This document shows, in pieces, positions 9,284-59,095 of a stretch of DNA of 64,000 nucleotides; the first letter of the stretch is position 1, and each line of letters opens with the position of its first letter. The position numbers and the translations under genes are program-made. A model generated the notes under the pieces. It was given only the letters and a program-made list of their open reading frames with translations, searched no databases and was not told the DNA's origin. Source of the DNA: Candidatus Thorarchaeota archaeon. Lineage in GTDB: Archaea; Asgardarchaeota; Thorarchaeia; Thorarchaeales; Thorarchaeaceae. The stretch covers positions 158,061-222,060 of the forward strand of contig RDOC01000003.1 in assembly GCA_011364985.1 (NCBI GenBank), written 5' to 3'.

Positions 9284-11305
9284 ATGAAGCAAACAATGAG
9301 CAATATTGACCTACATCTGGCCACGCCGGAGCTTCAGCAGGCTGCAGAAGGATCTTTTATCAAGAATGTATACCAATATGGGGACATATTCATCTTGAAG
9401 CTCTATCAGCCATCAGGAGGCACAAGTCAGCTACTCATTCAGCCAGGGCAGCGTATACATTTGACGGAGTACCGTCGGTCTGCTCCAAGGGTGCCACCAA
9501 AGTTTTGTACGGTACTCCGAAAATACCTTCGTGATAGAAAGGTCGTTTCAATACAACAGTATGACTTGGACCGCATTGTAATCATCGAAATAGGTGACGA
9601 AGATAGTAGGTATAAGATTGTGGCTGAACTCTTTGGCAACGGGAATCTTCTTCTGCTGGACCCTGATGATTCAATCTTTATCGCTATGCGTTATCGTAAG
9701 ATGAAGGACAGGGACATTGTACCAAAGGCAACCTATGTTTTTCCACCTCCAAGGGGTGTTGACATATTCAGTCTGGAACCGAACTCGCTTCAGGACATAA
9801 TAGCGGACTCGATAGCAAGTCTGTTACGCACTCTAGCGAGCAGGCTAAATCTTGACTCGTTATCGTGTGAGGAGATATGTGCCTTGGCAGGTCTGGAACC
9901 CCAAAAAAAAGTGCCAGAGCTTACATCTCAGGAATCGAAGGACTTGCAGGAAGGACTGGACATTTTCGCTAAGAAACTCAAGAACGGAGTTACAGAGCCC
10001 TGCATAGTTCAGGATGAGGATATTGAGGATGAAGAAGAACCTCAGCCAGTAGCTTTTCTTCCATTTGAGTTTGAAATGTATAATGGACGCATTCTGCAGA
10101 CTTTTGATACCTTTAGCAAGGCGATTGATTCGTTTTTCGGAGTATCTGACGCAGAACTAGCGGATGAAGAAGCAAAAGATGCGTTTGCAAATGAGAGAAA
10201 GCGACTTCAGATTATAGTGGACAAACAATCCGAGAGCATTTCAAGGTTGGAAACTAAGGCAAGAGAACTAAGAACTGCAGGAGAAGCAATCTATTCCCAC
10301 TTCCAGATTGTGCAAGAAATCCTGAATACGATTTCAGAGGCCCGTACTGGCGGTCTTTCTTGGGGAGAGATTATGACTAGGATAGAGGATGGAAAGAAGA
10401 AGGGGATTTCATCAGCTGTTGCGATCAAGCGAGTTATTCCATCCCAAGGTAAGATTGAGGTTGATCTCTCAGGCGCAGAAGTTGTCCTCGATATTCGCAG
10501 AAGTCCCCAGGACAACGCAGCAGCTGCCTATGATCAAGCAAAGAAATCCGAAGCAAAGGCAAAAGGAGCACTAAAGCAAATCGAACGAACTAGATCGAAG
10601 TTGGAGGAGCTAGCAGTATCATCAGTCGAGGTTGATAAAATAGCTCCGACAGCAGCAAAAATGAGAAAGAAACTCTGGTATGAAAAATACAGATGGTTTC
10701 TGTCCTCGGAAGAACATCTTGTCATTGGCGGCCGCGACGCAAAGACCAATGAGAGGCTGGCAAAGCGCCAGATGGAACCAAATGATGTCTTTCTCCATGC
10801 CGCACTACACGGCGCCCCATATGTCATAATCAAAGTTCCGGACAAAGCTCCTGGAGAACAGACTCTGAGAGAAGCTGCGCAGTTTGCGGTCACATTTTCA
10901 CGAGCATGGCAAGATGAATTGACCAATGGCGATGCATACTGGGTTGATCCGGACCAAGTGAGTTTCACTCCACCTTCTGGCGAGTATCTGCCAGCTGGAG
11001 CTGTCATGATTTATGGTTCGAAGAACTACATTCGCAATGTGCCCATATCTCTGGCAGTTGGAGTAATGCTTGAGGAGGAGTATGCCATTCCATTCTCAGG
11101 GCCTCACTCTGCGGTATCAGCGCATACGGATTACTATTTGGAAATAGCTCCTGGAAACACGAAGAAAGGACAGCTTGTAAAAGGCATTGTAAGTCGCTTG
11201 CGAAAGATGGTTCCTGAGGGAGAGGCGCATCTAATTGATGAAATACCACAGGAAGAAGTCATGCGAGTGTTGCCTACTGGTAATGGAAGAATACTCACTG
11301 AGTAG
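9284..11305 (+). CDS. rqcH: Ribosome quality-control NFACT protein (Rqc2/RqcH)
   Basis: LRKYL..DRIV..ELFGNGN; WYEKYRWF..IGGRDAKTNE; FLHAALHGAP; SGEYLPAGA. Confidence 0.9.
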   Translation: MKQTMSNIDLHLATPELQQAAEGSFIKNVYQYGDIFILKLYQPSGGTSQLLIQPGQRIHLTEYRRSAPRVPPKFCTVLRKYLRDRKVVSIQQYDLDRIVIIEIGDEDSRYKIVAELFGNGNLLLLDPDDSIFIAMRYRKMKDRDIVPKATYVFPPPRGVDIFSLEPNSLQDIIADSIASLLRTLASRLNLDSLSCEEICALAGLEPQKKVPELTSQESKDLQEGLDIFAKKLKNGVTEPCIVQDEDIEDEEEPQPVAFLPFEFEMYNGRILQTFDTFSKAIDSFFGVSDAELADEEAKDAFANERKRLQIIVDKQSESISRLETKARELRTAGEAIYSHFQIVQEILNTISEARTGGLSWGEIMTRIEDGKKKGISSAVAIKRVIPSQGKIEVDLSGAEVVLDIRRSPQDNAAAAYDQAKKSEAKAKGALKQIERTRSKLEELAVSSVEVDKIAPTAAKMRKKLWYEKYRWFLSSEEHLVIGGRDAKTNERLAKRQMEPNDVFLHAALHGAPYVIIKVPDKAPGEQTLREAAQFAVTFSRAWQDELTNGDAYWVDPDQVSFTPPSGEYLPAGAVMIYGSKNYIRNVPISLAVGVMLEEEYAIPFSGPHSAVSAHTDYYLEIAPGNTKKGQLVKGIVSRLRKMVPEGEAHLIDEIPQEEVMRVLPTGNGRILTE

Positions 11306-18938: not shown

Positions 18939-19017
18939 GCCGCCGTAGCTCAGCCGGTAGAATCCTGTTTCCTTAGGGAACAGCATGTCGAAGATGACAG
19001 CCTGTCAAGTTGTTGGT
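18939..19017 (+). pseudogene. Truncated tRNA-Asn-derived pseudogene (anticodon GTC) with one BHB intron at 22/23 (18961-18992); T-arm and acceptor 3' strand absent
   Basis: GCCGCCGTAGCTCAGCCGGTAG|intron|GATG ACAGC CTGTCAA GTTGT TGGT matches the spliced 5' part of the 29245-29469 tRNA; upstream promoter also homologous. Confidence 0.75.
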
Positions 19018-19157
19018 TCCATTTTCTCACTACAGAGGAAACATGATTCTTCCTTATGCAACATTGATTATATCGAGTTATCACTCAGTAAAGGACGAGA
19101 ATATTCGTTAGGAGAACAGGGGAATTCAATGCAAAGTGCTCCATCTGGAACTCCTAT

Positions 19158-19646
19158 TCAGCCTATGATTCTATCGCCACCATTGGAGCAGTCATAGACA
19201 TACTCCCCAGCAACGCAAATTGTTCTTGTGCTGCCATCTATTTCCCTGACTCTGACCATCCATACTGGACGTGTTGGGTGTTTGTCGTAGGAGAGAAAGG
19301 CGGCAACAATTTCATCATCTGGTTCTATCCTATCTCTGATAAAAGCCATAATGAACTCGGGGTCTAGCCAGTGCTTTGCCAACGGACAGTTCTTAGTGGA
19401 AGAAGGATGCCGCTGGAATGTGGAATACCTCATAAGGTTCAAATCTGTGTCGAATTGAAGATATCCAACAAGAAAGGAATCAATAGTTATACCAACATAC
19501 CAAGAAACTGTCTTCTCATCTGGTCCAACAATTGGAATTGGTTGGTTGACCACTCCTTTTCGTGTTACGAAATCATTCTGTGCGATGTTTGACTTCAGCA
19601 AGTGTATGGCCTTTGAATGAATTCTCTGATTCATATCTTTCTGCAT
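19158..19646 (-). CDS. Hypothetical protein, PepSY/propeptide-like, coupled to C39 peptidase
   Basis: 162 aa, 7 nt downstream of the peptidase; FLSYDKHPTRPVWMV. Confidence 0.55.
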   Translation of the reverse strand: MQKDMNQRIHSKAIHLLKSNIAQNDFVTRKGVVNQPIPIVGPDEKTVSWYVGITIDSFLVGYLQFDTDLNLMRYSTFQRHPSSTKNCPLAKHWLDPEFIMAFIRDRIEPDDEIVAAFLSYDKHPTRPVWMVRVREIDGSTRTICVAGEYVYDCSNGGDRIIG

Positions 19647-19653
19647 TTTTCTC

Positions 19654-20838
19654 TCATACCAATGTTAAAGCAGCTGTAAACGTATCCCAATAAGTTGTTA
19701 GGTCAAAATTCTCCCATCGAGCTATTGACCCTCCGGTAGGTGGCCAAGGATCATACACAAGAAGTCCACGGAAGGTATACCAAGTTCCTAGACGAGATCT
19801 TGTATATCCAGCTACTGTTCTTGAGTGCCCAGGAATCCAACTGATTAGTGGCCTATTTGCATTGATTTCCGATACAAACTCATTCCAATTTGCATTGGTA
19901 TTTCTATTTCCAGTTAAGGCCTGACTTGTGAGATCTTGAAGAACAGTTACCACATCGTTTGCACGAGAATATGGAAGACCATTTGGATTGGCACGAGTCC
20001 CAAGTCCCAACTCTTGTGCAAGACGGTCTTGAGTGTAGTTGTATCTATAGAAATCGAGAATCATCTGAACACTGGCTGCGACACACCAAACATTTGTCAA
20101 TTGCCCTCTTAGTTCATAACAAGGATGATGGTCATCATTGTTGGTACTGTAATGCAATTCACGAGAAATGAAGAGTGACACCACAAGTTCTGCCGGAGTT
20201 AGAATTCTTGTGAAATCGGCCAATCTAAGATACTCCGGGTTAAACATCCTATCACCAACTGGATGCTTCTTGTCCCAGAAATCAATTCGTTCTTTGAAAG
20301 ATTTCTTATTCTTTACTCTCTTCGCGCTTGGTATTTCTCTCAAAAGGGACCATCGCTCGAAGTGCCCAGGAGGCACCCCTGGAGTCCTAGGCTTTTCATC
20401 CGGAACCTTCTCCCATGTGAACAGCTCCAACATCAGCACTTCTCTTCCTCTTTGAAGAAATTGGATTGCCAGTTTTGGATAGCTATACGCCACGAATCGA
20501 GTTTGGTTGAATTTCACTCGATGTTTTCGTTCAGCAATCTGTTTTCCTTCCTTCAGCAGTTTTGGGAAACTCCAATCTGGTCCGAGCTGTATTGCCATCA
20601 GTGGATGCCCCAATTCTGGATTGGCCGCAATATCTGCTTGGAATACTTGACGACCCTTCTTTACTGGCACGCGATATAATAGTAGCTCGCCGTTTGTATC
20701 ATAAACAGGAGTTCCAGACGACTGAACCTTACCATTCTCAAAGAGTTGCTTCGGCAAGATGCCCGAGTGAAGGAGTGCATTGAGTTCTAGTCCTGCAATG
20801 CGTTTTATCATATCACGTTTCAACATTAGTCCTATCAA
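19654..20838 (-). CDS. Papain-like C39 family cysteine peptidase
   Basis: GQLTNVWCVAAS (Q/C), GHSRTVAGY (H), VYDPWP (D). Confidence 0.8.
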   Translation of the reverse strand: MIGLMLKRDMIKRIAGLELNALLHSGILPKQLFENGKVQSSGTPVYDTNGELLLYRVPVKKGRQVFQADIAANPELGHPLMAIQLGPDWSFPKLLKEGKQIAERKHRVKFNQTRFVAYSYPKLAIQFLQRGREVLMLELFTWEKVPDEKPRTPGVPPGHFERWSLLREIPSAKRVKNKKSFKERIDFWDKKHPVGDRMFNPEYLRLADFTRILTPAELVVSLFISRELHYSTNNDDHHPCYELRGQLTNVWCVAASVQMILDFYRYNYTQDRLAQELGLGTRANPNGLPYSRANDVVTVLQDLTSQALTGNRNTNANWNEFVSEINANRPLISWIPGHSRTVAGYTRSRLGTWYTFRGLLVYDPWPPTGGSIARWENFDLTTYWDTFTAALTLV

Positions 20839-21007
20839 ACCTCCGATTGTTTACATTTCTGTGTCCGAAAGAAACTCAAATTGGAAACCCCATACCTGAA
20901 TTTCATCTGCCACGATAAGGTAAACAAACACAAATGATACCATAGCATGTATTTATACCCTTTGATACTTATTTCATATTACTGTCATAGTGTTTCGTGA
21001 CTCGAAA

Positions 21008-21235
21008 GATGAGAAGAAGATTGCTGAGAGCCTAGGCTTCCAAATAACGCTTGCACCAACAGCTGTGAAGTACTTCCCAAGAACCGAGAGAGTATCTGTG
21101 AATTGGGTTGCCATAACTACAACAAAGGAAGATGCAGAACGCTGGGCTGACATCTGACCTCCAAATGATAAGCGAAAACGAGATGCTGTAGAGTTCTGGC
21201 TTAGAGAAGGAGCTGAGAAATGGCTTGATTCCTGA
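21008..21235 (+). pseudogene. Relic C-terminus of a paralog of the LAGLIDADG-like protein at 26593-28653
   Basis: Frame 2 reads DEKKIAESLG..P..VKYFPRTERVSVNWVA..DI*PPNDKRKR versus DEIRIVRKLG..P..IRYHERSGRVSVAWTA..APSNDVIKR; internal TGA at 21155-21157. Confidence 0.75.
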
Positions 21236-21241
21236 AAGAAG

Positions 21242-21260
21242 TAGGAAGCGCCACCGGGAG
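21242..21260 (+). repeat. att-like direct repeat, distal copy of tRNA-Asn 3' end
   Basis: TAGGAAGCGCCACCGGGAG, identical to 29238-29256. Confidence 0.85.
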
Positions 21261-21331
21261 AACTTGCTTCGGAACTATTATATGAACAAGAACAGAAATC
21301 GACTTGTTGGCGGGTTAGTTTCACACAAAAG

Positions 21332-22726
21332 ATGGGGCCTAATCATATGTTTGACTATTTTCGTTGGCAAGGAGTTCCCACCTATCCCTTGACTCAATCA
21401 GATAAACCTCGAACTGCAGTCTTCTGGGATGCTGAGAATGTTAGTGAGATCACAGGGGCCGATGTCGTAGAGAATTTCAATACTTGGTTGGAAAATGACT
21501 ATGATATTAATGCGAAATTTGCATTTGCTGACTGGAGTGGCCCCTATAGAGAGGTTGCTAATGCGCTAAACAGAATTGGATTTGACTTCATTCACGTTCC
21601 TGACGATTTGAAGGATAGTACTGATTATCAAATGGCCGCCTACATGATTGATTGGCTTCTACGTTCACCAGAAACCTCCTCCTATGTGATTGTTTCTGGT
21701 GATGCAGGGTTCGCACTAATTATGAGAGCGCTGCAAAAACAGGGAAAGAAGGTAACAGTGGTTAGTAATCCAGTAGTCACCCGACCGGAGTACATGATTT
21801 ATGCTGATAGATACGAGGACATTGACCGATTCAAGCCAAAGGCATTGAGAATAGACCCTCTGAAAGACGAAAAGGGAAAGAAGCTGACACCCGACGAGCT
21901 GAAAGAGGTGGCTGTACTCAGATTGTTGGAAACCATTGCAAGACTAGAAGGAGAGAACAGACCGACATATGACAAATATGTCAAAGTAATGTTATCCAGA
22001 TACAATCCAGATATTTCCTTTGGACGACCTGGCTCTTATAATTGGGAGGAAGCAATTACTGAATCCCTTTTTGATGGATTGATTGTGCATGAAGGGCAAG
22101 GAGTCACCGCACAGCTTAAGCTGACTAAGAAAGGAGCTGAAATGAGCGAAGGCCGTTCGGCCTCCGTTGAGAGCGCCCTCGAAAAGCTGGGAGAGATTGT
22201 CGAAACAATGTATGAGAAGGGGCAGCACACAGGAATGGAATCAGTAGTTCATGAGGTGAGGAAGGCCAAAATTGACTATGTGGATTTTGGCTTTCAGAAA
22301 TTCGGCGACTTTTCAAGAGCTGCAGAAGGTCGCAATATAATCAGAATAGAAACTAAAGAGAGCAGCACTCCTATTATCAAACCAGTTTATTCTGAAGAAA
22401 GGGCTCGGATTTGGTATGAAACAAACCTAGAGAACTACTTCGGAAAAGGAGCAAGAATACCCCAATCAAGATTTGTTCAGAGGACAATACAGTTTCTCTA
22501 TCAGTATGATGCTGGTTTCTCAAAACTTGAGTCATATCTAAGCGATGAGAAAACACAGAAAAGCTATGATGCAATTCTTGAAAACAGCGGAGTTTCTTTC
22601 ATTCCGCCATATGAAAAAGTTCTTCTCACGCTTCTACTGGGATTGGGCATAGATTGCCAAGAAGCACTTGAAATTGTAAACCGAGAATTGGCTCCGCTCG
22701 GTTATGAACTCAAGTGTCCGGAGTAG
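21332..22726 (+). CDS. NYN domain ribonuclease with LOTUS/OST-HTH domain(s)
   Basis: AVFWDAEN, STDYQM, IVSGDAGF..LQKQGKKV; DYVDFGFQKFGDF. Confidence 0.85.
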   Translation: MGPNHMFDYFRWQGVPTYPLTQSDKPRTAVFWDAENVSEITGADVVENFNTWLENDYDINAKFAFADWSGPYREVANALNRIGFDFIHVPDDLKDSTDYQMAAYMIDWLLRSPETSSYVIVSGDAGFALIMRALQKQGKKVTVVSNPVVTRPEYMIYADRYEDIDRFKPKALRIDPLKDEKGKKLTPDELKEVAVLRLLETIARLEGENRPTYDKYVKVMLSRYNPDISFGRPGSYNWEEAITESLFDGLIVHEGQGVTAQLKLTKKGAEMSEGRSASVESALEKLGEIVETMYEKGQHTGMESVVHEVRKAKIDYVDFGFQKFGDFSRAAEGRNIIRIETKESSTPIIKPVYSEERARIWYETNLENYFGKGARIPQSRFVQRTIQFLYQYDAGFSKLESYLSDEKTQKSYDAILENSGVSFIPPYEKVLLTLLLGLGIDCQEALEIVNRELAPLGYELKCPE

Positions 22727-22738
22727 ATAACTGCTTGG

Positions 22739-23557
22739 CTAGTCGGTCCGTGCTCTTGATTCTTCTTGCTTGAGAAATTCATCCAGGATTCGTACGGACT
22801 CACTCCTGTTGCGGAAATAATACACTATCAAGAAAGGAATAATTAATCCTATACTGATTGCCCACACTAGTGGTTGACGTATTACTTGGCTAAGGAACGG
22901 CATATAGACAGGTTGGTTATTCAAAGTTGACAAAACAAGTAGTAGATTCCCAACATAGACCATAAGAGTGACATCAAATCCCTTTGGGACAGCCAAATCA
23001 AGCATTTCATTTAGTGTTATTCTTCGACCATCCTCTTCGTCAGTCAGAGCATATTTCCTTCTACTGCTTTTTTCAAGAGATTCGAACCAACGGTGGTGAA
23101 GATGCTTCGTGTACTTCTGAATATAGTAGACCGTTGGAGTGGATACCAAGAATAGTATAACTAAATCAACCATCCCAGGTTCTTGCACTGCAAAGAATAG
23201 AGAAGAAACCAAGAACCAGAAATATAGAGGTATTAGGGCGACCAAGGTAGCAACTAATGTTAGGCCATAGATGTAAAGCAGCTGGCAAACCATCAATCTG
23301 AATGTGATCGACTTCCACTTTTTTGCCAATTCATACGAGAAAGAAAGTACTCCACCTATGATGAACACAACCAAACCCAGATTGAAGCTTAGTGCCAGAT
23401 TATCAATCTGAAAAATCGCAAATGCTAGACTGGCCAGTTCAATTGCGAGGAAATAGATTCCAAAGTTCTCGTCGAAGTCCTCAACTCTTGAAGGGTCTGT
23501 TTGGGAGTTTATGAAGTCCCTTACTATTGCCACTTGCTTTGCTGTTGGTTTCATCAC
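22739..23557 (-). CDS. Hypothetical multi-pass membrane protein
   Basis: 272 aa with about six hydrophobic segments. Confidence 0.65.
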   Translation of the reverse strand: MMKPTAKQVAIVRDFINSQTDPSRVEDFDENFGIYFLAIELASLAFAIFQIDNLALSFNLGLVVFIIGGVLSFSYELAKKWKSITFRLMVCQLLYIYGLTLVATLVALIPLYFWFLVSSLFFAVQEPGMVDLVILFLVSTPTVYYIQKYTKHLHHRWFESLEKSSRRKYALTDEEDGRRITLNEMLDLAVPKGFDVTLMVYVGNLLLVLSTLNNQPVYMPFLSQVIRQPLVWAISIGLIIPFLIVYYFRNRSESVRILDEFLKQEESRARTD

Positions 23558-23874
23558 ATACCCCTTGCTTATCCTTATTTACTACACAGAGTCATATAAA
23601 CAGGCACTTCAGAGATTATTGAAGCGACTTTGCTATTGAACCAGTAAAGCTAGCATCCTATATTAACCAAAAGCTGCTTCGATGTGTGTGTAAAGAGTGC
23701 TCATAGGCCTTTATGTTATGTAAGGGATAATAAGATACGCTCGTTTTTGGGGGCGGGTGTTTAATTTACTTCTTTTGAAATTTTGATGATTATATACTGT
23801 GATTGGATTGACACCAAAGGAATTTGGATTCATGTAACATAGAATTCTCACAGAGAAGATTGTAGAGGATAGTA

Positions 23875-26592
23875 TTGCAATTGTTTGGGCCATGGAAAGG
23901 AGAAGAATTAGTAGGAGCTCTAGAAGTGCTGGAGATTCCTGAAACATACATGTTGCAATCAGATTCGGGGAGTCAGCACCGTTCGTACGGCAAGTCATTC
24001 ATAAGTATTTTACGAGGAATGATTCTAGCCAAAACGCCTGTAGCTCTACGTCTTGAACGAACTCACGGGAAGACTCGAGTACTGCTCTTGACATGGGCAA
24101 GAAACCAAGAAGATCTGCAAAGGTTTCTGGACTCACTCTCCTCGAACTTAGTAGCTCATCTTCCCAAGTTCAAACTGAAGCGGCATGAGTTATTCCAAGG
24201 ATTTTCATCTCATCCAAACATCCAAGGCATTAATGCCTGTCTAGTGGGCGAGCCAGAAATCACAGAGGAAAAAGATGATTCGCCAAAACCAATGGATGTT
24301 GTTGGAGAGTGCATCCAGAACCTCTCAAATGCAATCCTTCAGGTCTTTGTCACTCCCACTAAAACCAATCGTGGCAAAGTGAGAGGTTTGGAACGCGCCT
24401 ATGAACGGGCGATGGAACAGTCACAGCAGGTAGTTTCCGCTGCCAGCATGTTCTCGCCAGACATTCAACAGTCCACCACACGGGTTAGTGCTAGTGCTTC
24501 ACGTGATGCTGAACGTCTTTCCAGACAGATCAAACGAATGAGTAGCCGTTACTTGGGAAAAGTGTCAGTTGTTGCGACCTGCTGGCACCAAGATAAGAGA
24601 GTTGCAGAAACAGAGGCCCGACGACTGCTGTCCGTTCTCATGAGTAGCGTCACCCCTGCTGACAAGGAAGAAGACCTTCGAGTTGAGATTAAGAAGAAGG
24701 CCAAAGACTTTGAGAAGGCTCTGGCTGGAAGACCCATTGGGAAAGAAACCATTCTTGTCCCTGAGGAGATAGTCAACTACTTCACACTCCCACGTGTAGA
24801 CATGGGAATCAAGGTGTCACGTCGAGAGGACTTCTCTACGGCGGGTATTGACCTAACGAAACTTGAGAACAATGAGAATGTGCCTCAGCCCAGTATCAGC
24901 CCGGCCCCTATGTCAGACTGGAAACCTAGGACAGCAACAAGATGGTCACCCGCAGAGGATGATACCATATGGAGATTCCCCCTTGAGAAGCTCCTTCTTC
25001 TTGGCTATGCAATTCGGAACAATGCACCTCAGAAACAGGAGCCCTATGGTCTTGTTCCACGAATTCTGGGCTCCCACGTCGGCATCTATGGGAACACCGG
25101 CTACGGCAAGACCACCACCGCCGTCACGCTCATTGCTCAGGCCTACAGGAACAATGTCATCCCAATCATTCTCACTCCCGGAAACGTTGACGACTGGCGA
25201 GTCCTTAGGGACCTCTACGATGAGTTTCGTATCTTTACTGCCGGAAATCCCGATGTGGCACCCCTGCGATACAACATGTGGAATGTCCCGGACGGTGTCC
25301 CCATTGGCAAGTACATCGATAGGATGGTGGACGTCCACACCGCTGCTCTCCCAACAGACGGCGTCATCTCCATGCACTTTGACGATGTCTTCAACACTAT
25401 GTACGAGAACTGTGGCTGGTCACGCATGGGGAACGTCCGAGGTCGTCCCATCCTGCTCTCGGACCTGTATGAGGCCGTACATGAGGTTGCGGACACTCAC
25501 CTGAAGTACGGCGATGAGATGCGCAGGGACTTTCATGGTGCACTCGATGCGCGCCTTCGCAGCATTCTCAGAAACGACATTCTGGTGGACATGTTCAACA
25601 CGCCCAGTGGGCTCACGATTCCCGAACTCCTCTCTCACCCGACCATCATTGAGACCCGTGACCTCTCTCCTGAAGACCGGGCGTTGCTTACTGGCGCCCT
25701 TACGGTGGGCATCAGCGAGTACCTCATTGCGAATCCGCGGAAGACGGTCAGTCATCTACTGGTCATTGAGGAGGCCCATCACTTCCTCAAGCGTCCACGA
25801 ATGGCTGGAGGCTACGCTGAGCCCACCTCCCAGCAGAAGGCCACGGAGAACATCACTGAGATGCTACGGACTCAACGCGGGACCGGTCTAGGCCTTATGC
25901 TCATCGACCAACTTCCCAGCAGTCTTCCTCTGGACATTGTCAAGCTCCCCAGCAGTGTCATCATTCACACACTGACCGACGTGGAGGAGCGTACTCTGGT
26001 TGGCAGGCAAGCCCTGTGTAACGACGCGCAGATCGAGCACATTGGCGGCATGGGTATCGGGGAGATCGTGGCACGAGTGCAGACGCAGACCGTTCCGTCT
26101 AACGTGCAGGTGGTGCCGCTGGATTATGTACTCACGCAGCCTCTGCCCAAGCGCCCTTGGACCGATGCGATGATCAGGAGTGCGATGCGGCCGGTCTTCG
26201 AGGGCAATCCTCACCTCGACGAGAGTCATCCGCTCTCTGGGGAGCTTCGGGGCGCCCTGAAGGGCATCTCGGCGCCGGCACGTATGGAACTTCGCCCCGA
26301 GGCACAACTGGTCAGCCTGTCCAGCAGGCAGGAAACCGACATCTCGGAGATCGTCAACACGCCCGCCTTTGTCGATGCTTACTTGGACCGTGTGGGGCTG
26401 GCGTCGCAGGGTGACCCCGCTGCTGTGGCTCGGTTGCTGACGGTGGTGGCCGGGAAGTTCTGCTCGGATGGGGTGCAGGTGGTTCCCTTCGCTGAGCGCC
26501 TTCTTCTGCATGCGGCAGGGATGCTTCAGGAGCCTCGAGAGACCGCCGTTCTTGGGGGGATTCTTCTGGCAATCAGGGGTACTAGTGTGTGA
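23875..26592 (+). CDS. HerA/VirB4/FtsK-like P-loop ATPase
   Basis: Walker A GNTGYGKT, Walker B LLVIEEAH, R..GLGLMLIDQLPS. Confidence 0.85.
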   Translation: MQLFGPWKGEELVGALEVLEIPETYMLQSDSGSQHRSYGKSFISILRGMILAKTPVALRLERTHGKTRVLLLTWARNQEDLQRFLDSLSSNLVAHLPKFKLKRHELFQGFSSHPNIQGINACLVGEPEITEEKDDSPKPMDVVGECIQNLSNAILQVFVTPTKTNRGKVRGLERAYERAMEQSQQVVSAASMFSPDIQQSTTRVSASASRDAERLSRQIKRMSSRYLGKVSVVATCWHQDKRVAETEARRLLSVLMSSVTPADKEEDLRVEIKKKAKDFEKALAGRPIGKETILVPEEIVNYFTLPRVDMGIKVSRREDFSTAGIDLTKLENNENVPQPSISPAPMSDWKPRTATRWSPAEDDTIWRFPLEKLLLLGYAIRNNAPQKQEPYGLVPRILGSHVGIYGNTGYGKTTTAVTLIAQAYRNNVIPIILTPGNVDDWRVLRDLYDEFRIFTAGNPDVAPLRYNMWNVPDGVPIGKYIDRMVDVHTAALPTDGVISMHFDDVFNTMYENCGWSRMGNVRGRPILLSDLYEAVHEVADTHLKYGDEMRRDFHGALDARLRSILRNDILVDMFNTPSGLTIPELLSHPTIIETRDLSPEDRALLTGALTVGISEYLIANPRKTVSHLLVIEEAHHFLKRPRMAGGYAEPTSQQKATENITEMLRTQRGTGLGLMLIDQLPSSLPLDIVKLPSSVIIHTLTDVEERTLVGRQALCNDAQIEHIGGMGIGEIVARVQTQTVPSNVQVVPLDYVLTQPLPKRPWTDAMIRSAMRPVFEGNPHLDESHPLSGELRGALKGISAPARMELRPEAQLVSLSSRQETDISEIVNTPAFVDAYLDRVGLASQGDPAAVARLLTVVAGKFCSDGVQVVPFAERLLLHAAGMLQEPRETAVLGGILLAIRGTSV

Positions 26593-28653
26593 GTGGTTCG
26601 CATGGCGGGACGTATCGAGAGCAGGGGCCGCGGTGAGAGGTCTGAGATACGGGATGCTGGCAGTGATGTGCGGGAGCTTCGGGAGGTACGGGACGCGGAG
26701 GAGGTTCAGGTTGAAACCGGGGAGGATGAGCATGCCGTTGAGCGGATTGAGCGGAGCGATGCGCAGGAACCCGTGGAGCGGAGGGTCGTTGATGCGATTC
26801 AGGAACTGGATGCTGAGGAAGGGCGTGAGAGCGACACGCGGAAACGGATTGCTGGTGCCCTCAGGGAGCTGGAGGAGATAGAGGGCGGGTCCGTCAGGGA
26901 CAGGGTCGAGCGGGCAGTTGCGGAGGTCAAGGAGGAAGTTGAGAAACCGGACATTCCTCCTGAGAAGGACTTTGAGGATGCAAGAGAGGTAGTAGAGAGA
27001 GCCAAGGAGGTTGAAGAGGCAAACGTAGAGGCCAAGGAGGAAGAGAGTAGGGTATCAGAGTCGTCACCCAGAGAGGCGTTTGAGGATTCATCAGAACAAC
27101 GGGCGGAGGGGGAGAAGCGCAAGGGGCTTGAGAGGGTTCCCGATGAACAGGTGCGCGAAACCTTCTCGGAGTTGGAATCGAAGGAGGGTGAACCACGAAG
27201 CTGGGCTTCGGAGGAGATTGCAGAAGGGCTGAAGCGGCTCGCTCCGGAAGACGCAGAGGTTTCTCGGGTCTATTGTGCAGACATTCGAGAGGGATTGGGC
27301 CTGACGCCGGAGGAGGTCGAGTCCTTCACGAATGAGTTTCAGCAGGCGAAGGAGGCACTTGAGGCAGAGGGGGAGGTTCGATGTGGCATGGTGGATGAGA
27401 AGGTCTACATTTGGAGGCCAGACTTGGACCCAACCCAGCTTGAGAATGCTTATGGCAATCTCTACTACTATTTCCGTGATGAAGAAGCATTTGAGAAGTA
27501 TATCTGGGATATTGCGTGTCCTCTGGGAATTGAGGGGGATGATGAGAAGCAGAACATTGAACATCTTCAGAAGCTAGCCTCTCAGATGTTGACTGAGCCT
27601 ACGAGTGAATACTGCGTGAATCCTAGACTCAATCGTATTCGTGGAGATCATGTCCATTTTTTTAATAATTTGTCTGGAAAGACACTGTCTGAGTTGGAAG
27701 GTGAGATTTCAAAGATCACTAAGAAGGGTGGTCGAGGAGGAATTAGGAATCCGAGGTTTCCTGAAGGCGAGGAGTTGGAGATTGCATTGGCTCGCCTTAC
27801 TGCTGTCGCTGTCAGCGATTGCCACCTGAAAGCAAATGGAACCCTTGAGTATGCTGAGGGGGAGATAAGTCGGATACGTATAGTTGAGAGAGATCTTCAG
27901 GTGTTTGGAGATATTAGAATGAATCCAAAGTTAAAAGAGAGAGAGAATTTCTATGAAGTCTTCTTGCCTTCTCCATTCGGAATCGTGTTATTACACCTAG
28001 GAATACCTTCAGGTGACCGGACGGTCCAGAATCCAGGGCTTTATCCGGAACTTAGGGAGTTCTCAGTAAAGGCCCAGTGTGGATTTATTGAGAATCTAAT
28101 CCCTCAAGATGGAACCATTAGCAGAAAGAATGTTCAGTGGACTCACTCAAACGCCCTACATGCAGGCGATAAAACAGAAATCTATGGAATCGAGCCCAAA
28201 GTGGGGCGCAAAGAAATCAATTTGATAATTGAAGAGGGGAAGAGAGAGAAACACAGTTGGGTACTTAATTACGGAAAACTGGAAGAGCTTAGACAATCTG
28301 ATTCAGATAATCTTAGACATATTGCAGACAGTCTATGGAACATTGTTTATGAAAATCCCAACCGACTAGTTGAGGATGAGATAAGAATTGTTAGAAAGTT
28401 GGGTGTAAATTATAATGCAAAACCATACACAATCCGATATCATGAGAGGAGTGGGCGGGTTTCTGTTGCTTGGACAGCAGAACCAGAGAGTGTTCTTGAA
28501 TCAATCAAGCTAGCGATGATTGCCCCTTCTAATGATGTAATTAAAAGACAGATCATGAGGGATTTGATTGCAAATCATCCTAAATACATGAGAAGAGCAC
28601 TTCGGCAATTCGAAAAGAACGGTATAGAGGTTTATCAGTGGTGGACATCATGA
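26593..28653 (+). CDS. Acidic E/R-rich N-terminus fused to a two-motif LAGLIDADG-like endonuclease domain
   Basis: LARLTAVAVSDCHL and FIENLIPQDGTI at the spacing of DOD-type LAGLIDADG motifs; abuts the ATPase stop (alternative start ATG 26602). Confidence 0.65.
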   Translation: MVRMAGRIESRGRGERSEIRDAGSDVRELREVRDAEEVQVETGEDEHAVERIERSDAQEPVERRVVDAIQELDAEEGRESDTRKRIAGALRELEEIEGGSVRDRVERAVAEVKEEVEKPDIPPEKDFEDAREVVERAKEVEEANVEAKEEESRVSESSPREAFEDSSEQRAEGEKRKGLERVPDEQVRETFSELESKEGEPRSWASEEIAEGLKRLAPEDAEVSRVYCADIREGLGLTPEEVESFTNEFQQAKEALEAEGEVRCGMVDEKVYIWRPDLDPTQLENAYGNLYYYFRDEEAFEKYIWDIACPLGIEGDDEKQNIEHLQKLASQMLTEPTSEYCVNPRLNRIRGDHVHFFNNLSGKTLSELEGEISKITKKGGRGGIRNPRFPEGEELEIALARLTAVAVSDCHLKANGTLEYAEGEISRIRIVERDLQVFGDIRMNPKLKERENFYEVFLPSPFGIVLLHLGIPSGDRTVQNPGLYPELREFSVKAQCGFIENLIPQDGTISRKNVQWTHSNALHAGDKTEIYGIEPKVGRKEINLIIEEGKREKHSWVLNYGKLEELRQSDSDNLRHIADSLWNIVYENPNRLVEDEIRIVRKLGVNYNAKPYTIRYHERSGRVSVAWTAEPESVLESIKLAMIAPSNDVIKRQIMRDLIANHPKYMRRALRQFEKNGIEVYQWWTS

Positions 28654-29240
28654 ATATGAATGAGATGATACAAAAAGCTGCTGGGATTGTTACAAACATA
28701 CTTGCAAGGATTGAATCACGGCAATTGCCCCTGAAAGATGTGAAGATTAGAGTGAGTGAGAAACTGGAGGGGGCAGACGATATTAATGCGACTGTGGATA
28801 AAGCAATAGAGTGGGCACTAGATAATTGGATAGTGGATAAGGTCTTGGACTATGATGAGGATGACGAGGAATTTGCTGGAGAGCTAGTATGGTTCCTACG
28901 TGCAACAACAGAAGAAGAAGCCGAGTATCTAGGTCGCTTGTCGAAAGCAGAGCATGCTCTACTAAATATCCTGAGAAATGCTGAAAACGAAAGCAGACTA
29001 GGAGTAATTCGGGCAAATGAAGCTCTTCAGAGATTGCGTAAACTAGGGTTTGATTTAAAGTCTGCACCATCTATTATTGGAAAGACAAGTAGTTTCTTCA
29101 GGCCGGAGAATGGAAAGCTGATTGAGTTCAAATATCTACTTTCTGAAGAAGAGAAATCTGAGGAGTATGTAACAGCTCTGAAAGAACTTGATGAGAAAGA
29201 ACGCAGGAAACAAGAACGTTTGGATAGGATGAATGAATAG
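28638..29240 (+). CDS. Hypothetical acidic protein, translationally coupled to the LAGLIDADG-like gene; stop codon lies inside the att repeat
   Basis: ATGA overlap at 28650-28653; TAG at 29238-29240. Confidence 0.7.
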   Translation: MVDIMNMNEMIQKAAGIVTNILARIESRQLPLKDVKIRVSEKLEGADDINATVDKAIEWALDNWIVDKVLDYDEDDEEFAGELVWFLRATTEEEAEYLGRLSKAEHALLNILRNAENESRLGVIRANEALQRLRKLGFDLKSAPSIIGKTSSFFRPENGKLIEFKYLLSEEEKSEEYVTALKELDEKERRKQERLDRMNE

Positions 29241-29256
29241 GAAGCGCCACCGGGAG
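29238..29256 (+). repeat. att-like direct repeat, tRNA-proximal copy
   Basis: TAGGAAGCGCCACCGGGAG. Confidence 0.85.
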
Positions 29257-29469
29257 GATCATCGATCGCTCCGGAAATCGAAGCGAAGCTCGAACCTCCG
29301 ACCATTCGTCGCACACCACGGAATGTGATGCACTACAACTGTCTGGCTCTCAACCAGCCGGCTGAAAGATAACAGGCTTTAGCGGCATGGCGCAGTACGC
29401 GTCCACTGCTGTCGCTTTCGATGTAAGGCTCCCTTGGGAACCTCACCCTACCGACTGAGCCACGGTGGC
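29245..29469 (-). tRNA. tRNA-Asn(GTT) interrupted by five BHB introns (22/23, 28/29, 37/38, 43/44, 59/60)
   Basis: Exons 29469-29448, 29416-29411, 29378-29370, 29340-29335, 29304-29289, 29258-29245 join to a 73-nt cloverleaf GCCACCG TG GCTC AGTCGGTA GAGC G ACAGC CTGTTAA GTTGT TGGTC GGAGG TTCGAGT CCTCC CGGTGGC G. Confidence 0.88.
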
Positions 29470-29865: not shown

Positions 29866-30756
29866 ATGGATGATTCGGGTTTGAGTTTCGAAGAACGTAA
29901 TGAGGCCCTAGATAAGGGAGTGGAATATCTCCGACACGTAACACTGGTGATTTTAGCAGCTTGCGGAGCATTCTGGACAGCCACAAGAGCAGATGAAGCT
30001 GCTTTTCCTTGGATAATCATGGTTTACGGCGGCGCCATTTCTTTTACTCCAGATAGAAGAAGGAGATTCCTTAGTACTGCCAAGAGAAGATTTATTCGCC
30101 TTGACGGCTAGTTGCAAGTAGATTGGGTGGAGAGGAGAAGAATTCCAAAGGAATACTATCGAGATAGTAAGAGTGAAGAAATAGAACGGATGATTAGAAG
30201 AGATCCCCACTACAAAGATTGGATTGTGATGCGTTTTCGCTCCTCGGGCGGATTATCAGATTATGAAGACATGCTTGAGATTCAAAATGCGAAAGGGAAA
30301 AGTGTCACAGAATTATCAGAGTCAGAAGTTGACCTCTTGATCTCATCTGGAACCTTGTTTTTTGTACTTGAAAATTGTCAGAGAATGGGATTTTTCAGAA
30401 GATTCGGTTCTCGTACACCTTATGTCATACTCCTTGTACTATTTGCAGGTATGATCTTTGCCTTTGTTGTAGGGACTGTTTTCTTTGAATACATCAGGAC
30501 GCTACCAGCTGAGCAAGGATTGCTCGGATTCATTCTCTTCTTCGCGGTACTCTTCTGCTTTGCAGGAATCCTATGTTTTTCACAAAGAAACAATCATAGA
30601 CGAGAGCAGGAAGCTGATTTTGCTAGAAGTAAGCAGGAGCCTATCTCAGACGAGTTACTTGATGATATTCTTGATAAAACAGAGAAGCTTGCAGATTTGA
30701 AACAAAACGATCCATCAGAATACATCCATAGGTTGAGAGAACTGGCTGATGACTAG
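29866..30756 (+). pseudogene. Membrane protein split by a single in-frame TAG (30109-30111)
   Basis: ORFs 29866-30111 and 30112-30756 are contiguous in the same frame. Confidence 0.6.
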
Positions 30757-31818: not shown

Positions 31819-31909
31819 ACACCCAACAGCGCCACTTTTCCTTTACTGCATTATTCGCTGGTAATCACTTCTTGTAGTCCTATTCGAATCTCAAGTTGAA
31901 CTGCTGGTT

Positions 31910-39681: not shown

Positions 39682-40670
39682 TAGCCAAGTTCCATGTCTA
39701 CAATGCTCTTCGGTTCTTCTCCTTGCAGGAATCTAAGAATATTCTCTCCTGCGAATTGAAGATGTGCCTTGGCAACAGCCTCAGAATATGCAGCCCTGTG
39801 AGGTGACATAATTACATTATCCAACTCATTGAATGGATAGTTGGATGCTTGAAATTCCTTCACATCCACTCCCCACTGAGGGTATCTCCACCACACATCC
39901 AGGGCTGCAGCGAAGATCCGTTCTTCTCGCAGCGCATTGTAGAGGGCCAATTCATCGATTACCTCGCCTCTGGAAATATTGACAAGAATGGAGGTCTTCT
40001 TCATCCACGACAAAAACTGATTGTTCACAATTCCTCTTGACGATGGAGTGAGCGGAAGAGAAAGAATCACGAAGTCAGCTTTCCTGACCAGATGCTCCAT
40101 CTCCGCTACAATAGCCACAGCATCAATGAGACTAGGATTCCTGTTGACACCAGTTCTTGTCGCTCCTGTAATTCGCAGACCGAATCCCTTCAGTCGTTCT
40201 GCTATTGCCATGCCAATGTTGCCTAAGCCCAGAATTAGACAGGTCTTTTCTCTAATCTCAACATTGGGTCGAGGGCCACCAAATCCGTAGGTCCAATCCC
40301 CTTTTCGCAGCTCACGGTCATTGACTATGGTATTCTTTGCTGCGGCCAATAGAAGCATGATAGCATATTCAGCTACTTCTTCGGCATTCATAGGATTATT
40401 ACAGACAACAAGGTCGCCGCGTTCAAGGACCGCATCACAGTCGATTTTGTCAACTCCAGCACTAAGGGCTTGAATCATCTTGAGATTCTTCGCTTTTCTG
40501 ATGAATTCTGCAGGAACACGTCCGGATGCAACTACTAATGCATCGCCCGCCTTTTCAAGCATTGATTCGGCAGTGCGTTGGGAACTTACAACAACAGCTA
40601 GGTTACCAAGTATATTCTGAACGGCTGCCACCGTATCTGCATCATAGGGAATGAGAACCTTTGGCTTCAT
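39678..40670 (-). CDS. D-isomer-specific 2-hydroxyacid dehydrogenase
   Basis: GLGNIG, VNISRG, AALDVWW, SPHRA. Confidence 0.9.
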   Translation of the reverse strand: MKPKVLIPYDADTVAAVQNILGNLAVVVSSQRTAESMLEKAGDALVVASGRVPAEFIRKAKNLKMIQALSAGVDKIDCDAVLERGDLVVCNNPMNAEEVAEYAIMLLLAAAKNTIVNDRELRKGDWTYGFGGPRPNVEIREKTCLILGLGNIGMAIAERLKGFGLRITGATRTGVNRNPSLIDAVAIVAEMEHLVRKADFVILSLPLTPSSRGIVNNQFLSWMKKTSILVNISRGEVIDELALYNALREERIFAAALDVWWRYPQWGVDVKEFQASNYPFNELDNVIMSPHRAAYSEAVAKAHLQFAGENILRFLQGEEPKSIVDMELGY

Positions 40671-40788
40671 AGATTGCTTTCACACTCTTGAATATCGCTT
40701 TTCCACTGATTATCGCCTTAAGACTATCGTCAGAATGGATCATGCAAGGGGAATGTGGGGTCAAGTTTCGATTCCATGTCCATTGCAC

Positions 40789-42273
40789 CTAGTATGAACG
40801 AGCCACGTAAGCAACTTCTTGTGCAGCCCTTCCACAGACAGGACAGACTCCCTCAGGAGACTCCTTAACATCCATCCGAGTTCCTCGCATTTCTCCACCC
40901 GTACGTTCCTTTATCTCTTCGGCACATTCTAGACCGTCCATCTCGGTTGTACAGAATGGGATTCGTGCAATTTTCCCCTTGTTTAGGGCATCTTCCATTT
41001 CCCCGAGAGAAACGCAATCGACAACTAGTCCTTCGAATTTGGATTCGGCAAAGGTCCTTAGAGTCTTGTCGATTTCCTTACCAAGAGCATACACTCTCTT
41101 CTTGAGGTTCTTTAGCTCACAGGGCTCCCGTTTCATGGTATCCCTTCGAAAGAGGACTATCTTTTCCTCCTTGATATCACAGGGACCAGCCTCAATTCTA
41201 ATAGGGACACCTTTCATCTCCCAATAGTTGTATTTCCACCCAGGAGTATTATCGGAGTCGTCAAGGAAGACCCTAATCCCAGCCTTGGCTAGCTTGGACT
41301 CCACCTTCTTGCAATACGAAACGACTTCCTCTGCGTTTTTCCCTCTAACGATAGGAATGACAACTACTTGATAGGGGGCCAACTTGAATGGCAGACGAAG
41401 ACCCTTGTTATCGCCGTGAATAGAAATCACTGCACCAAAGATTCGCGAAACAGCGGGCCCATAACATGTCTGCCATGCGTGTACATACTCATTGTTCTCG
41501 TCAAGAAAGGTGATATCAAATGCCTTTGCGAAATTGTCACCCAAATCGTGCGTGGACGGGAGCTGAATCACCTTACCATCGGGCATTAGTGTATCAGCTG
41601 CATATGTGTTTAAGCCACCAGGAAACTTATCCCATTGGGTTCTTCGAAAGATCATGACAGGAAGTTCGTATTCATCTGACACGACCTCCTTTGTTGTTTC
41701 AAGGTCCTCCATGACCTGTGCCAAAGCCTCTTCATGGGTGGCAAAGACATTGTGGCTTTCAATCCAGAGAAACTCACGTCCGCGAAGGAAGGGACGTGTG
41801 CTCTTTATTTCGGAACGAAATACCGAACATCTTTGATACCTCTTCAGTGGTAAGTCACGCCATGAACGAATCCAGAGAGAGTACATTGGGTAGATTGCGG
41901 TTTCGCTGGTCGGCCTAAGAGCAAGCTTTTCTTCTAGCTCCTCGCTTGAGCCAATGTCCTTTATCCAAAAGACCTGAGGTGTGAAGCCTTCAACGTGATC
42001 AGCCTCTTTTGTCAGATTCTTCTCAGGAATCACAGTGGGAAACAGCATGGGCAGATGCTTCTTCCGTTTAAGAGCATCTTCGAGAAGGCCGAACATTATG
42101 TCCATCGTCATATAGCTCCAGGGCAAAAAGGGTGTGAATCCCTTGACCCCATACCTGATATCGGCCAGTTCTGCTACTTTCACTATTTCACCAAACCAAT
42201 CAGAAAACTCCTTTTCCTTGTTGATATTGAAGATTACCTGTCTTGGTTCCTGTTTCTCTTTCTTATCGCTCAT
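40789..42273 (-). CDS. proS: Prolyl-tRNA synthetase (archaeal/eukaryotic type)
   Basis: LRPTSET, TRPFLRGREFLW, C-terminal VARSY. Confidence 0.95.
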   Translation of the reverse strand: MSDKKEKQEPRQVIFNINKEKEFSDWFGEIVKVAELADIRYGVKGFTPFLPWSYMTMDIMFGLLEDALKRKKHLPMLFPTVIPEKNLTKEADHVEGFTPQVFWIKDIGSSEELEEKLALRPTSETAIYPMYSLWIRSWRDLPLKRYQRCSVFRSEIKSTRPFLRGREFLWIESHNVFATHEEALAQVMEDLETTKEVVSDEYELPVMIFRRTQWDKFPGGLNTYAADTLMPDGKVIQLPSTHDLGDNFAKAFDITFLDENNEYVHAWQTCYGPAVSRIFGAVISIHGDNKGLRLPFKLAPYQVVVIPIVRGKNAEEVVSYCKKVESKLAKAGIRVFLDDSDNTPGWKYNYWEMKGVPIRIEAGPCDIKEEKIVLFRRDTMKREPCELKNLKKRVYALGKEIDKTLRTFAESKFEGLVVDCVSLGEMEDALNKGKIARIPFCTTEMDGLECAEEIKERTGGEMRGTRMDVKESPEGVCPVCGRAAQEVAYVARSY

Positions 42274-55976: not shown

Positions 55977-56600
55977 TCACAGTGTCGTGGGAAAGACCTT
56001 GATCATAAATGCATACCAGATTCGGCCAAACACTGGTGTAAGGAAGGCAACGGTTAGCATCCCCTGAGTCAGAAGAGGTAGTGTCACAAACCCAATGACT
56101 GCCATCGTTGCAGCGCCCTCAATTGTGAGCCCAATTACTGTGACTAGGAGAAGGGTGAAAGTCATTCCAACTATCGACATGATAGACAACTTGACCAATG
56201 ACCGACCGTTGTCTAATTCATAAGAAGCCAAGCCAACCACAAGACCTGTAAATCCATATGCGAATGCGGGCAATGTCATTGTGATCATAGTTCCACTCAA
56301 TAAGGTACCTGCCAGCAGCTCGCCAAGATAGCCAGTAAGTAGGCCAGCAATAGGACCACGAATAGCACCTACAAGGGCAATCACTGCAAGAGCTGGAAGA
56401 AGACCAAGTGTGAATAGATCGACCATGATGTACGGCCAAGAAATCCACTTCAGAACAATGTAGATGACGGCCCCAAACAAAGCTGTAAGCAGCGTTCCTA
56501 AGGCGACTTTCGGTTCTTGAACTTGCAGTAGCTCCAATACTGTCTTTTCATCACTACCCTCTTTCCGTGCTGTTGATTCTTCATTCATGTTACTCATCAC
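55977..56600 (-). CDS. ECF transporter S-component-like membrane protein
   Basis: About six TM; GAIRGPIAGLLTGYLG signature. Confidence 0.7.
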   Translation of the reverse strand: MMSNMNEESTARKEGSDEKTVLELLQVQEPKVALGTLLTALFGAVIYIVLKWISWPYIMVDLFTLGLLPALAVIALVGAIRGPIAGLLTGYLGELLAGTLLSGTMITMTLPAFAYGFTGLVVGLASYELDNGRSLVKLSIMSIVGMTFTLLLVTVIGLTIEGAATMAVIGFVTLPLLTQGMLTVAFLTPVFGRIWYAFMIKVFPTTL

Positions 56601-56601
56601 C

Positions 56602-58233: not shown

Positions 58234-58391
58234 AGAAGACGCCTCAAGTAGCTTTGCGTATGCATCAGAAGCCAGAAATCACATGCATTTCAGCAATATA
58301 TTTTCCACTATTGTAATGAATATTAGATTCACTTTTGATATATCGTCTAGTGAGATGCCTTCAAATTACGATAAAACAAGAAAAATAGTGA

Positions 58392-58409: not shown

Positions 58410-58414
58410 ATTGG

Positions 58415-59062: not shown

Positions 59063-59095
59063 TCGAACTATCTCCGTGAATTAGTGGATGTAAAC

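Follow-up and report, generated by a model that had tools for sequence, protein, structure and literature searches.

How does an 8-kb DNA segment come to lie between two exact copies of a tRNA 3′ end when it encodes no integrase? This question is raised by a 64,000-nucleotide stretch of a Candidatus Thorarchaeota archaeon genome (GenBank assembly GCA_011364985.1, contig RDOC01000003.1, positions 158,061 to 222,060, forward strand), hereafter the window. The original prediction, made from sequence alone, described a 19-bp repeat of the tRNA-Asn 3′ end bounding five genes without a recombinase, and proposed either an undescribed class of Asgard mobile element, in which a LAGLIDADG-type nuclease targets tRNA ends and a pumping ATPase moves DNA, or a satellite relying on an integrase supplied in trans. 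We find that the observation is correct, while the interpretation is supported only in part. The segment has landed on the end of the tRNA-Asn gene on top of an older element of the same family, and these elements probably spread by cutting and re-supplying gene ends.

The repeat and the tRNA-Asn gene

The 19-bp repeat is exact at 21242–21260 and 29238–29256 (both on the minus strand), with no other copy at up to 3 mismatches, where 0.01 would be expected by chance. It covers tRNA positions 62–73 plus 7 downstream bases; the right copy is the 3′ end of the working tRNA, while the left copy is a displaced 3′ end. The working tRNA-Asn(GTT) (29245–29469, minus strand) is missed by both ARAGORN and Rfam, but was recovered with a stem-pairing finder written for this purpose, which made no calls on two shuffled sequences. 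It comprises six exons and five introns of 29–32 nt, one of them in the T-loop, giving a 73-nt mature sequence, and its acceptor stem is a different allele from that of the tRNA relics described below.

Five genes without a recombinase

The five ORFs between the repeats are as originally described. The first (21332–22726, plus strand) encodes an NYN-domain protein (Pfam E 4.7e-19), although the LOTUS domain also proposed for it was not detected by Pfam, and no homologue occurs in any other locus examined. The second (22739–23557, minus strand) encodes a 272-aa membrane protein matching no family, with homologues beside the ATPase in one related locus (L168) and beyond the tRNA in another (L190). 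We regard both genes as cargo. The third (23875–26592, plus strand) encodes a 905-aa VirB4/HerA-like P-loop ATPase (DUF87) with intact Walker A and B motifs at residues 406 and 632; its model (pLDDT 80.5) finds its best fold matches in VirB4/TrwK (E 6e-16 over about 900 columns, though with a TM of only about 0.28) and HerA.

The fourth gene (26593–28653, plus strand) encodes a 686-aa protein in which an acidic N-terminal arm (32% D+E) precedes a predicted two-domain LAGLIDADG endonuclease. Sequence searches gave no family for this protein, but its model (pLDDT 92.7) shows two alpha-beta-beta-alpha-beta-beta domains packed by two helices, with a Foldseek E of 1.5e-5 and a VIA Z of 17.4 (rmsd 3.0, 194 residues aligned), and the top 19 VIA rows are LAGLIDADG-fold proteins. 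The predicted catalytic residues D409 and D506 lie at the ends of helices 169–185 and 268–282 of the model and are conserved in 176–179 homologues (D409, 99% D; D506, 80% D plus 20% E). The fifth gene (28638–29240, plus strand) is coupled to the fourth and stops on the first three bases of the right repeat. It encodes a 200-aa protein that is possibly a winged helix and is present in some clades only; structure matches in the Atlas (TM about 0.39) are a lead only, and the likeness to TFIIIC B-block winged helices (TM 0.38) is too weak to use. Only the ATPase, the nuclease and, in some clades, the 200-aa gene form the core of the element.

No recombinase or transposase family matches the five ORFs or four neighbors, and no PF00589 or PF16795 integrase was found in the genome, which is 74% complete. 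A serine resolvase exists elsewhere in genome G000 (C21, 209-aa frame) but not in genomes G104 or G017, and was rejected as the integrase. In Logan contigs from two runs that may be the source sample, depth is flat (about 21–29) over element and flanks and no joint between the repeats was seen, although such contigs drop rare forms and hence carry no evidence on excision; no RNA data set was listed as holding the sequence. One low-depth contig joins 18960 to 29416, which is explained by a related tRNA-Asn lacking intron 1 that maps to both copies.

Two layers in the window

Directly left of the left repeat is the relic 3′ end of an older LAGLIDADG gene (21005–21244, plus strand), which was not part of the original prediction. 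It contains two in-frame stops, the last of which falls on the first bases of the left repeat, and its best six matches (52–60% identity) are all from the clade without the 200-aa gene (clade A), while the intact 686-aa gene belongs to another (clade B). The whole block is in turn flanked by a split native tRNA-Asn, also not noted originally. The 5′ relic (18939–19018, plus strand) extends to about position 48, contains one D-arm intron and a mutated anticodon, and is inverted relative to the working gene; it is identical at 71/79 positions to the intact tRNA-Asn of a same-genus genome, and at 43/63 to the window's working gene. A decayed 3′ fragment (30026–30037, plus strand) has an acceptor half that pairs with the 5′ relic and not with the working gene. 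As this fragment is only 12 nt, with 0.15 expected by chance in the window, its assignment rests on position and on the same layout in relatives. Between the 5′ relic and the nuclease relic lie a 162-aa ORF and a C39-like peptidase (19158–20838, minus strand), probable cargo of the older layer, although this assignment is inferred. Beyond the 3′ fragment, a 214-aa membrane-type ORF (30112–30756, plus strand) recurs as a single-gene cassette between tRNA-Asn 3′ fragments in other genomes (five loci). The older element split the native tRNA-Asn around an inverted, five-intron copy of another allele, after which the 8-kb element displaced the older nuclease gene.

Distribution and junctions of the family

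The family is patchy, multi-copy and often broken in Thorarchaeota, with matches in 52/86 genomes (0–9 per genome). A convergent tRNA 3′ end lies within 150 nt of 35/75 module ends (33/73 without the window), against 21/1248 ordinary ORFs (1.7%), at Asn, Lys, Trp, Ser, Arg, Phe, Glu and other tRNA genes. Other clades abut the 3′ ends of the protein-coding AdoHcyase, class-V aminotransferase, OTCase and S19 genes, three with a 94–130-bp duplicate of that end on the far side and a fourth of 106 bp. Most relatives, however, show no far repeat within 10 kb, and in family f12, seen only with 1.5-kb flanks, about 1 of 20 copies is next to a tRNA. Empty sites exist, in which zupT is followed directly by tRNA-Asn. 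Two nuclease clades, by a quick tree, occupy the same Asn site, each in genera g1 and g5. No relatives were found in viral contigs or by a single-protein metagenome scan, both of which were insensitive pattern scans.

The displaced tRNA-Asn 3′ fragments start at tRNA position 62 in 30/50 cases and never before position 60, while the three longest 5′ relics end at T55, two with one junction sequence but different host introns. These breakpoints point to a cut in the T-loop, not to integrase recombination. By hand count, the working tRNA is inverted against zupT in 13/16 nuclease-adjacent and 5/26 nuclease-free loci (p 1e-4), although the genomes are kin and p-values are overstated. The allele of the working tRNA differs from the flanking fragments in the outer layer of the window and in four other genomes, while the two 19-bp copies are identical; a hand count of T-arm introns gave 23/25 against 21/34 (p 0.014, subject to the same kinship), and nuclease-adjacent tRNAs of other types often have no T-arm intron. 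Of 56 assessable nuclease genes, 33 have no ATPase directly upstream, and no other secretion-system gene was seen.

A proposed homing element that replaces gene 3′ ends

We favor, with reasonable but not full confidence, a homing element that replaces gene 3′ ends. In this model the free-standing LAGLIDADG protein would cut a sensitive tRNA-Asn gene in the T-loop, between positions 55 and 62. The break would then be repaired on a donor copy, where the 5′ part of the tRNA pairs with the donor's tRNA, the donor's 3′ end, nuclease, ATPase and cargo are copied, and the recipient's old 3′ end (from position 62) becomes the far repeat. Repeated events stack elements and single-gene cassettes, with the newest next to the tRNA, as illustrated by the clade B element that pushed away a clade A nuclease. 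In many loci the unit sits inverted inside the host tRNA gene and carries a complete rescue tRNA with promoter, while the split host gene decays on both sides, as here. Of these steps, the stacking and the inverted layout are demonstrated by our analysis, though the origin of the latter remains unexplained; cleavage, with its site and overhang, is inferred from the junctions, as is repair on a donor. More weakly, it is inferred that a T-arm intron in the incoming tRNA may shield it from re-cutting. It is also inferred, tentatively and as somewhat less likely than not, that the VirB4/HerA-like ATPase moves donor DNA between cells, which homing in a prokaryote needs; nuclease genes without it would depend on help. 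Several observations count against this model. Most relatives show no far repeat within 10 kb, 33 of the 56 nuclease genes lack the ATPase, nuclease-adjacent tRNAs of other types often have no T-arm intron, and few copies in family f12 are next to a tRNA. Because the repeat copies in the window are identical, replacement of the 3′ end by a foreign allele is not visible in this last event, and cassette arrays also occur in five genomes without a nuclease match.

The original prediction is supported in that the element is mobile, lacks an integrase, has a predicted LAGLIDADG fold with intact catalytic residues and is strongly associated with tRNA 3′ ends. The repeat, however, is better read as a pushed-aside gene end left by homing than as an att site, the targets include the 3′ ends of protein genes, and DNA pumping by the ATPase remains an inference.

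Alternative explanations

The alternative of a satellite or remnant integrated by a tyrosine or serine integrase supplied in trans, where the repeat is attL/attR and the nuclease is cargo, is not supported and we consider it unlikely. Duplicated tRNA 3′ ends starting in the T arm are typical of integrase elements, 29/86 genomes carry a PF00589 gene, the genome is incomplete, and arrays exist in genomes without a nuclease match. Yet the direct repeat is not diagnostic, no PF00589 match lies on a fetched nuclease locus (on the one shared contig the two are over 600 kb apart), and four genomes of 91–97% completeness have tRNA-linked nucleases but neither PF00589 nor PF16795. Relics ending at 55 and fragments starting at 62 imply lost bases, and the inverted rescue copies and duplicated protein-gene ends do not fit conservative recombination. 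A vertically inherited chromosomal operon next to tRNA-Asn, with the repeat an old accident, would account for the same genes lying between zupT and tRNA-Asn in several genera, mostly without a far repeat. This is very improbable and already contradicted, as about 20 genomes have the empty site, nuclease clades cut across host genera, two clades occupy one locus, zupT is about 75% identical where the module is 36–41% identical, and other copies sit at many other genes.

It is also unlikely, though slightly less so than a satellite, that the locus is an ATPase-nuclease defense or anti-competitor module, like HerA-effector systems, that merely accumulates in a tRNA hot spot. Weak PADLOC HerA matches (best E 1e-9), Foldseek listings of Sir2-HerA, DUF4297-HerA and TdpAB, and the NYN cargo are consistent with this view, although PADLOC returned no match for the nuclease. 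The ATPase and nuclease core are also shuffled (57% identical for the ATPase but 28% for the core in locus L036; 30% and 56% in L190), but shuffling fits target switching equally well. Defense does not explain why the nuclease gene, with or without ATPase, ends within a few bases of a gene 3′ end in fixed orientation, why neighboring clades share a target, or the fixed breakpoint.

Implications

The locus points to a recombinase-free way of site-specific gene acquisition in Asgard archaea that integrase- and hallmark-based searches miss. The mapped break, between positions 55 and 62, makes a nuclease assay straightforward, and the family (559 clusters at 50% identity) is a large untapped set of predicted meganucleases with guessable natural targets. 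A bolder possibility, which we consider less likely than not, is a self-transmissible homing element, whose nuclease and VirB4-like pump together would move gene ends between Thorarchaeota cells, build integron-like single-gene cassette arrays at tRNA 3′ ends without any recombinase, and import whole intron-laden tRNA alleles. If true, this would give one concrete route for the spread of Asgard tRNA introns. A literature search, which did not extend to subscription papers, found no paper that combines VirB4, LAGLIDADG and archaea in this sense.

Comparison with known systems

The predicted nuclease shares its fold (Z 13–17) and two acidic residues at helix ends with intein- and intron-encoded two-domain LAGLIDADG enzymes (TliVMA, PI-PfuI, I-Tsp061I, I-DmoI) and with WhiA, but at 10–18% identity, with no splicing element around it and with extra N-terminal regions. 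WhiA is catalytically dead, while here the acids are kept. The ATPase shares the P-loop motor domain of VirB4/TrwK and HerA, with an alignment to VirB4 that spans both halves, but at 9–14% identity and low global TM; no other type IV secretion gene and no NurA was seen in the element, and none of the four other ORFs matches a channel or relaxase family of conjugative elements. No Cas1 or family B polymerase, as in casposons, was found by Pfam among the five ORFs, and no IntI tyrosine recombinase, as in integrons, was found on array loci, where cassettes are instead separated by tRNA ends. Among Asgard elements at tRNA genes in Heimdallarchaeum (Wu et al., 2022, PMC8813620), aloposons have tandem 3,000–6,000-aa genes and a MinD/ParA ATPase, neither of which occurs here. 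HeimM2, compared by its description only, is 8 kb, has a homing-endonuclease homologue proposed to serve integration and an LRR gene, and no ATPase is described for it.

Phage SegB is likewise a free-standing homing endonuclease enriched beside tRNA genes of many types and drives duplications (Chihara et al., 2026, PMC13096335), although it is phage-encoded, lacks an ATPase and causes amplification rather than end replacement. SegB is a GIY-YIG enzyme. Mobile endonuclease ORFs (mORFs) of fungal mitochondria, at Allomyces and Glomus atp6, bring a foreign gene end and leave the native end duplicated downstream (PMC3630166), but are organellar single ORFs with protein-gene targets and no motor ATPase. 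The yeast WHO elements at FBA1 (Coughlan et al., 2020, PMC7282813) show a free-standing LAGLIDADG gene behind its target, 3′ fragments of the target that begin at one position just past the cut, clusters of intact and decayed genes with the newest next to the working gene, and occasional moves to other loci, and these same signatures are seen here. WHO elements are eukaryotic, home in diploids at meiosis, encode an intein-zinc-finger protein and leave fragments of about 400 bp of a protein gene, while the present element is archaeal, with 12–30-bp tRNA fragments, an acidic arm, a coupled ATPase, cargo, tail-to-tail orientation and inverted rescue copies, and no intein-like or zinc-finger domain in the Pfam scan or the model. 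The mechanism proposed here thus has known counterparts in WHO elements and mORFs, and the element is not a wholly undescribed class.

The element and its tRNA-Asn gene

The observation behind the original prediction, an element of about 8 kb bounded by an exact direct repeat of a tRNA-Asn 3′ end and carrying five genes, holds. The 19-bp direct repeat is exact at 21242-21260 and 29238-29256 and is far above chance, and the five ORFs between the copies are as described. The tRNA-Asn gene is invisible to ARAGORN and Rfam because it has five introns; however, a stem-pairing finder and a manual parse place it at 29245-29469 on the minus strand, with a normal 73-nt mature sequence, where the repeat corresponds to tRNA positions 62-73 plus 7 bases. 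The five introns of this tRNA-Asn(GTT), of 31, 32, 29, 30, and 30 nt, equal the maximum number reported in a preprint (10.64898/2026.10.13.758758). Named homologues come from Thorarchaeota. Elsewhere in the window, a diverged tandem duplication with about 3650-nt spacing and 70-80% identity lies at 56573-61511.

Predicted nuclease and ATPase

Residues 225-686 of the 686-aa protein are predicted to fold with a pLDDT of 92.7, and the model matches two-domain LAGLIDADG enzymes (Foldseek E 1.5e-5; VIA Z 17.4, RMSD 3.0 over 194 residues). The two motif helices end in D409 (99% D) and D506 (80% D, 20% E) across 176-179 homologues, which argues for an active nuclease, while the N-terminal 224 residues are 32% acidic. 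The 905-aa protein has intact Walker motifs and resembles VirB4/TrwK and HerA ATPases, although the global TM is low, so that it is the family that is clear rather than the exact role. Of the two domains that had been proposed for the first gene of the element, NYN is confirmed and LOTUS is not, while the 200-aa protein matched no family. The G+C content rises to 58-63% in the 3′ half of the ATPase gene and in the acidic arm of the nuclease, and drops to 39-45% in the nuclease core. The identities of the ATPase and of the nuclease core are also discordant across loci, so the two are shuffled.

Distribution and target association

The nuclease family is found in 52 of 86 genomes of the host family, with 0-9 matches each and many of them broken, in 15 of 19 genomes of one other Asgard family, and hardly elsewhere among the groups searched, with 559 clusters in the representative library. 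A second, frameshifted nuclease pseudogene is present in the same genome as the window (C15, about 40100-41150; positions 10187-11156 of the extracted locus L114). Here, no tRNA end lies directly behind the gene, a tRNA-Ala lies 2.8 kb upstream, and a nearby tRNA-Leu call by ARAGORN looks false. Tyrosine integrases were found in only 29 of the 86 genomes and on none of the nuclease loci retrieved, and four well-assembled genomes with tRNA-linked nucleases have neither PF00589 nor PF16795. The other 57 genomes have no PF00589 match at all, not even a XerA-like gene, and these include several that are over 95% complete, which may reflect either a limit of the search or a real loss.

Of 75 module ends, 35 have a convergent tRNA 3′ end within 150 nt (33 of 73 without the window), against 21 of 1248 ordinary ORFs, and an independent whole-tRNA finder confirmed 31 of the 35. 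Many tRNA types are used, and near neighbours on the tree, which was inferred with a quick method, mostly share one. The other large clade ends at the 3′ ends of protein genes, namely AdoHcyase in four genomes, a class-V aminotransferase, OTCase, and S19. Convergent ORFs as such are common (189 of 610), but three of these loci carry a 94-130-bp, 77-84% identical duplicate of that gene end on the far side.

Succession of elements at the Asn locus

About 20 genomes have zupT followed by a co-oriented tRNA-Asn and no nuclease; in the genomes of loci L122, L139, and L059 (genus g3) and in genome G019, the zupT matches carry an in-frame TGA or TAG near the 3′ end, which probably just reflects a shorter gene. 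Two nuclease clades occupy this site, clade A without and clade B with the 200-aa gene, and each occurs in two host genera (g1 and g5), indicating replacement and not descent. The window shows the succession, where a clade A relic at 21005-21244, with 52-60% identity to clade A, ends on the left repeat, and the intact clade B element lies between this relic and the tRNA. Locus L037 (1-7816) carries tandem elements consisting of a nuclease and 200-aa gene, a tRNA 3′-end-like sequence, one ORF, and then another ATPase and nuclease.

Breakpoints and cassette arrays

Among 50 tRNA-Asn 3′ fragments, 30 start at position 62, 7 at position 63, 10 at positions 64-66, and 3 at positions 60-61. The 5′ relics mostly end near position 20, but the three longest end at T55, and two of these share one junction sequence although their introns differ. 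We infer that a break in the T-loop with loss of positions 56-61 fits a staggered cut followed by repair better than it fits conservative recombination. Many tRNA-Asn 5′ fragments with a promoter end near positions 19-22, at the site of the D-arm intron (L035, L055, L056, L066, L068, L137, L143, L158, L166, and L187), forming a second preferred breakpoint. Single-gene cassettes separated by tRNA-Asn 3′ fragments form arrays of up to five (L065, L076, L035, and L191), and the same cassettes recur in different genomes, also at loci without a nuclease. At L157 (2615-4055; contig C37 of genome G002), the ubiD-like gene itself lies between two tRNA-Asn 3′ fragments, as if it were a cassette, while in the window a degenerate sequence at about 31829-31840, right after the 127-aa ORF, resembles a further tRNA-Asn 3′ fragment and may mark another old cassette.

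A split host gene around an inverted tRNA copy

The working tRNA is inverted against zupT in 13 of 16 nuclease-adjacent loci and in 5 of 26 nuclease-free ones (hand count; p 1e-4, although related genomes are not independent), and it is flanked by a 5′ relic and 3′ fragments in the original orientation (L035, L068, L187, L190, and L191). In the window, the 5′ relic at 18939-19018 is identical at 71 of 79 positions to the native tRNA-Asn of a same-genus genome, intron included, and at only 43 of 63 to the working gene, while the 3′ fragment at 30026-30037 has the acceptor half that pairs with the relic. So an earlier event split the host gene and supplied an inverted copy of another allele. By whatever route the inverted form first arises, it is inferred that, once formed, it is a valid homing donor with homology on both sides. 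In genome G091 (L062:4796 and L133:1741), the working tRNA and the 5′ relic share three nearly identical introns but differ in the acceptor and T stems, as would result from gene conversion or from a chimeric rescue copy. T-arm introns are found in 23 of 25 nuclease-adjacent and 21 of 34 free tRNA-Asn genes (p 0.014), which is suggestive of shielding, but other tRNA targets often lack them.

Proposed mechanism and relationship to known elements

The mechanism that we consider most likely, and hold with fair confidence, is that the nuclease cuts a sensitive allele, repair copies the donor's gene end together with the element, and the old end is pushed away as the far repeat. While the repeat, the succession of clades, the target association, and the positions at which fragments and relics end are observed directly, cleavage by the nuclease and the copying that would follow are inferred from these junctions and from the predicted fold. 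It is possible, though somewhat less likely than not, that the ATPase delivers donor DNA; it is absent upstream of 33 of 56 assessable nuclease genes.

The original interpretation, of a possibly undescribed class of Asgard mobile element in which a LAGLIDADG-type nuclease targets tRNA ends and a pumping ATPase moves DNA, or else of a satellite relying on an integrase supplied in trans, is partly supported. The element is real and mobile, whereas an integrase acting in trans is unlikely. A defence module that sits in a hot spot is similarly doubtful, and a vertically inherited operon is very improbable.

Our literature search found no paper on this family. What this analysis adds is the mapped breakpoints, the succession of two clades at one site, the split host gene with an inverted rescue copy, and the cassette arrays. 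On the features tested, the element does not qualify as an integrase element, an aloposon, a casposon, or an integron. The logic of the proposed mechanism has been shown experimentally for yeast WHO elements (PMC7282813) and described for mitochondrial mORFs (PMC3630166), and in this view the element works like both while being a member of neither. The nearest Asgard precedent is HeimM2, for which co-option of a homing endonuclease for integration at a tRNA was suggested (PMC8813620).
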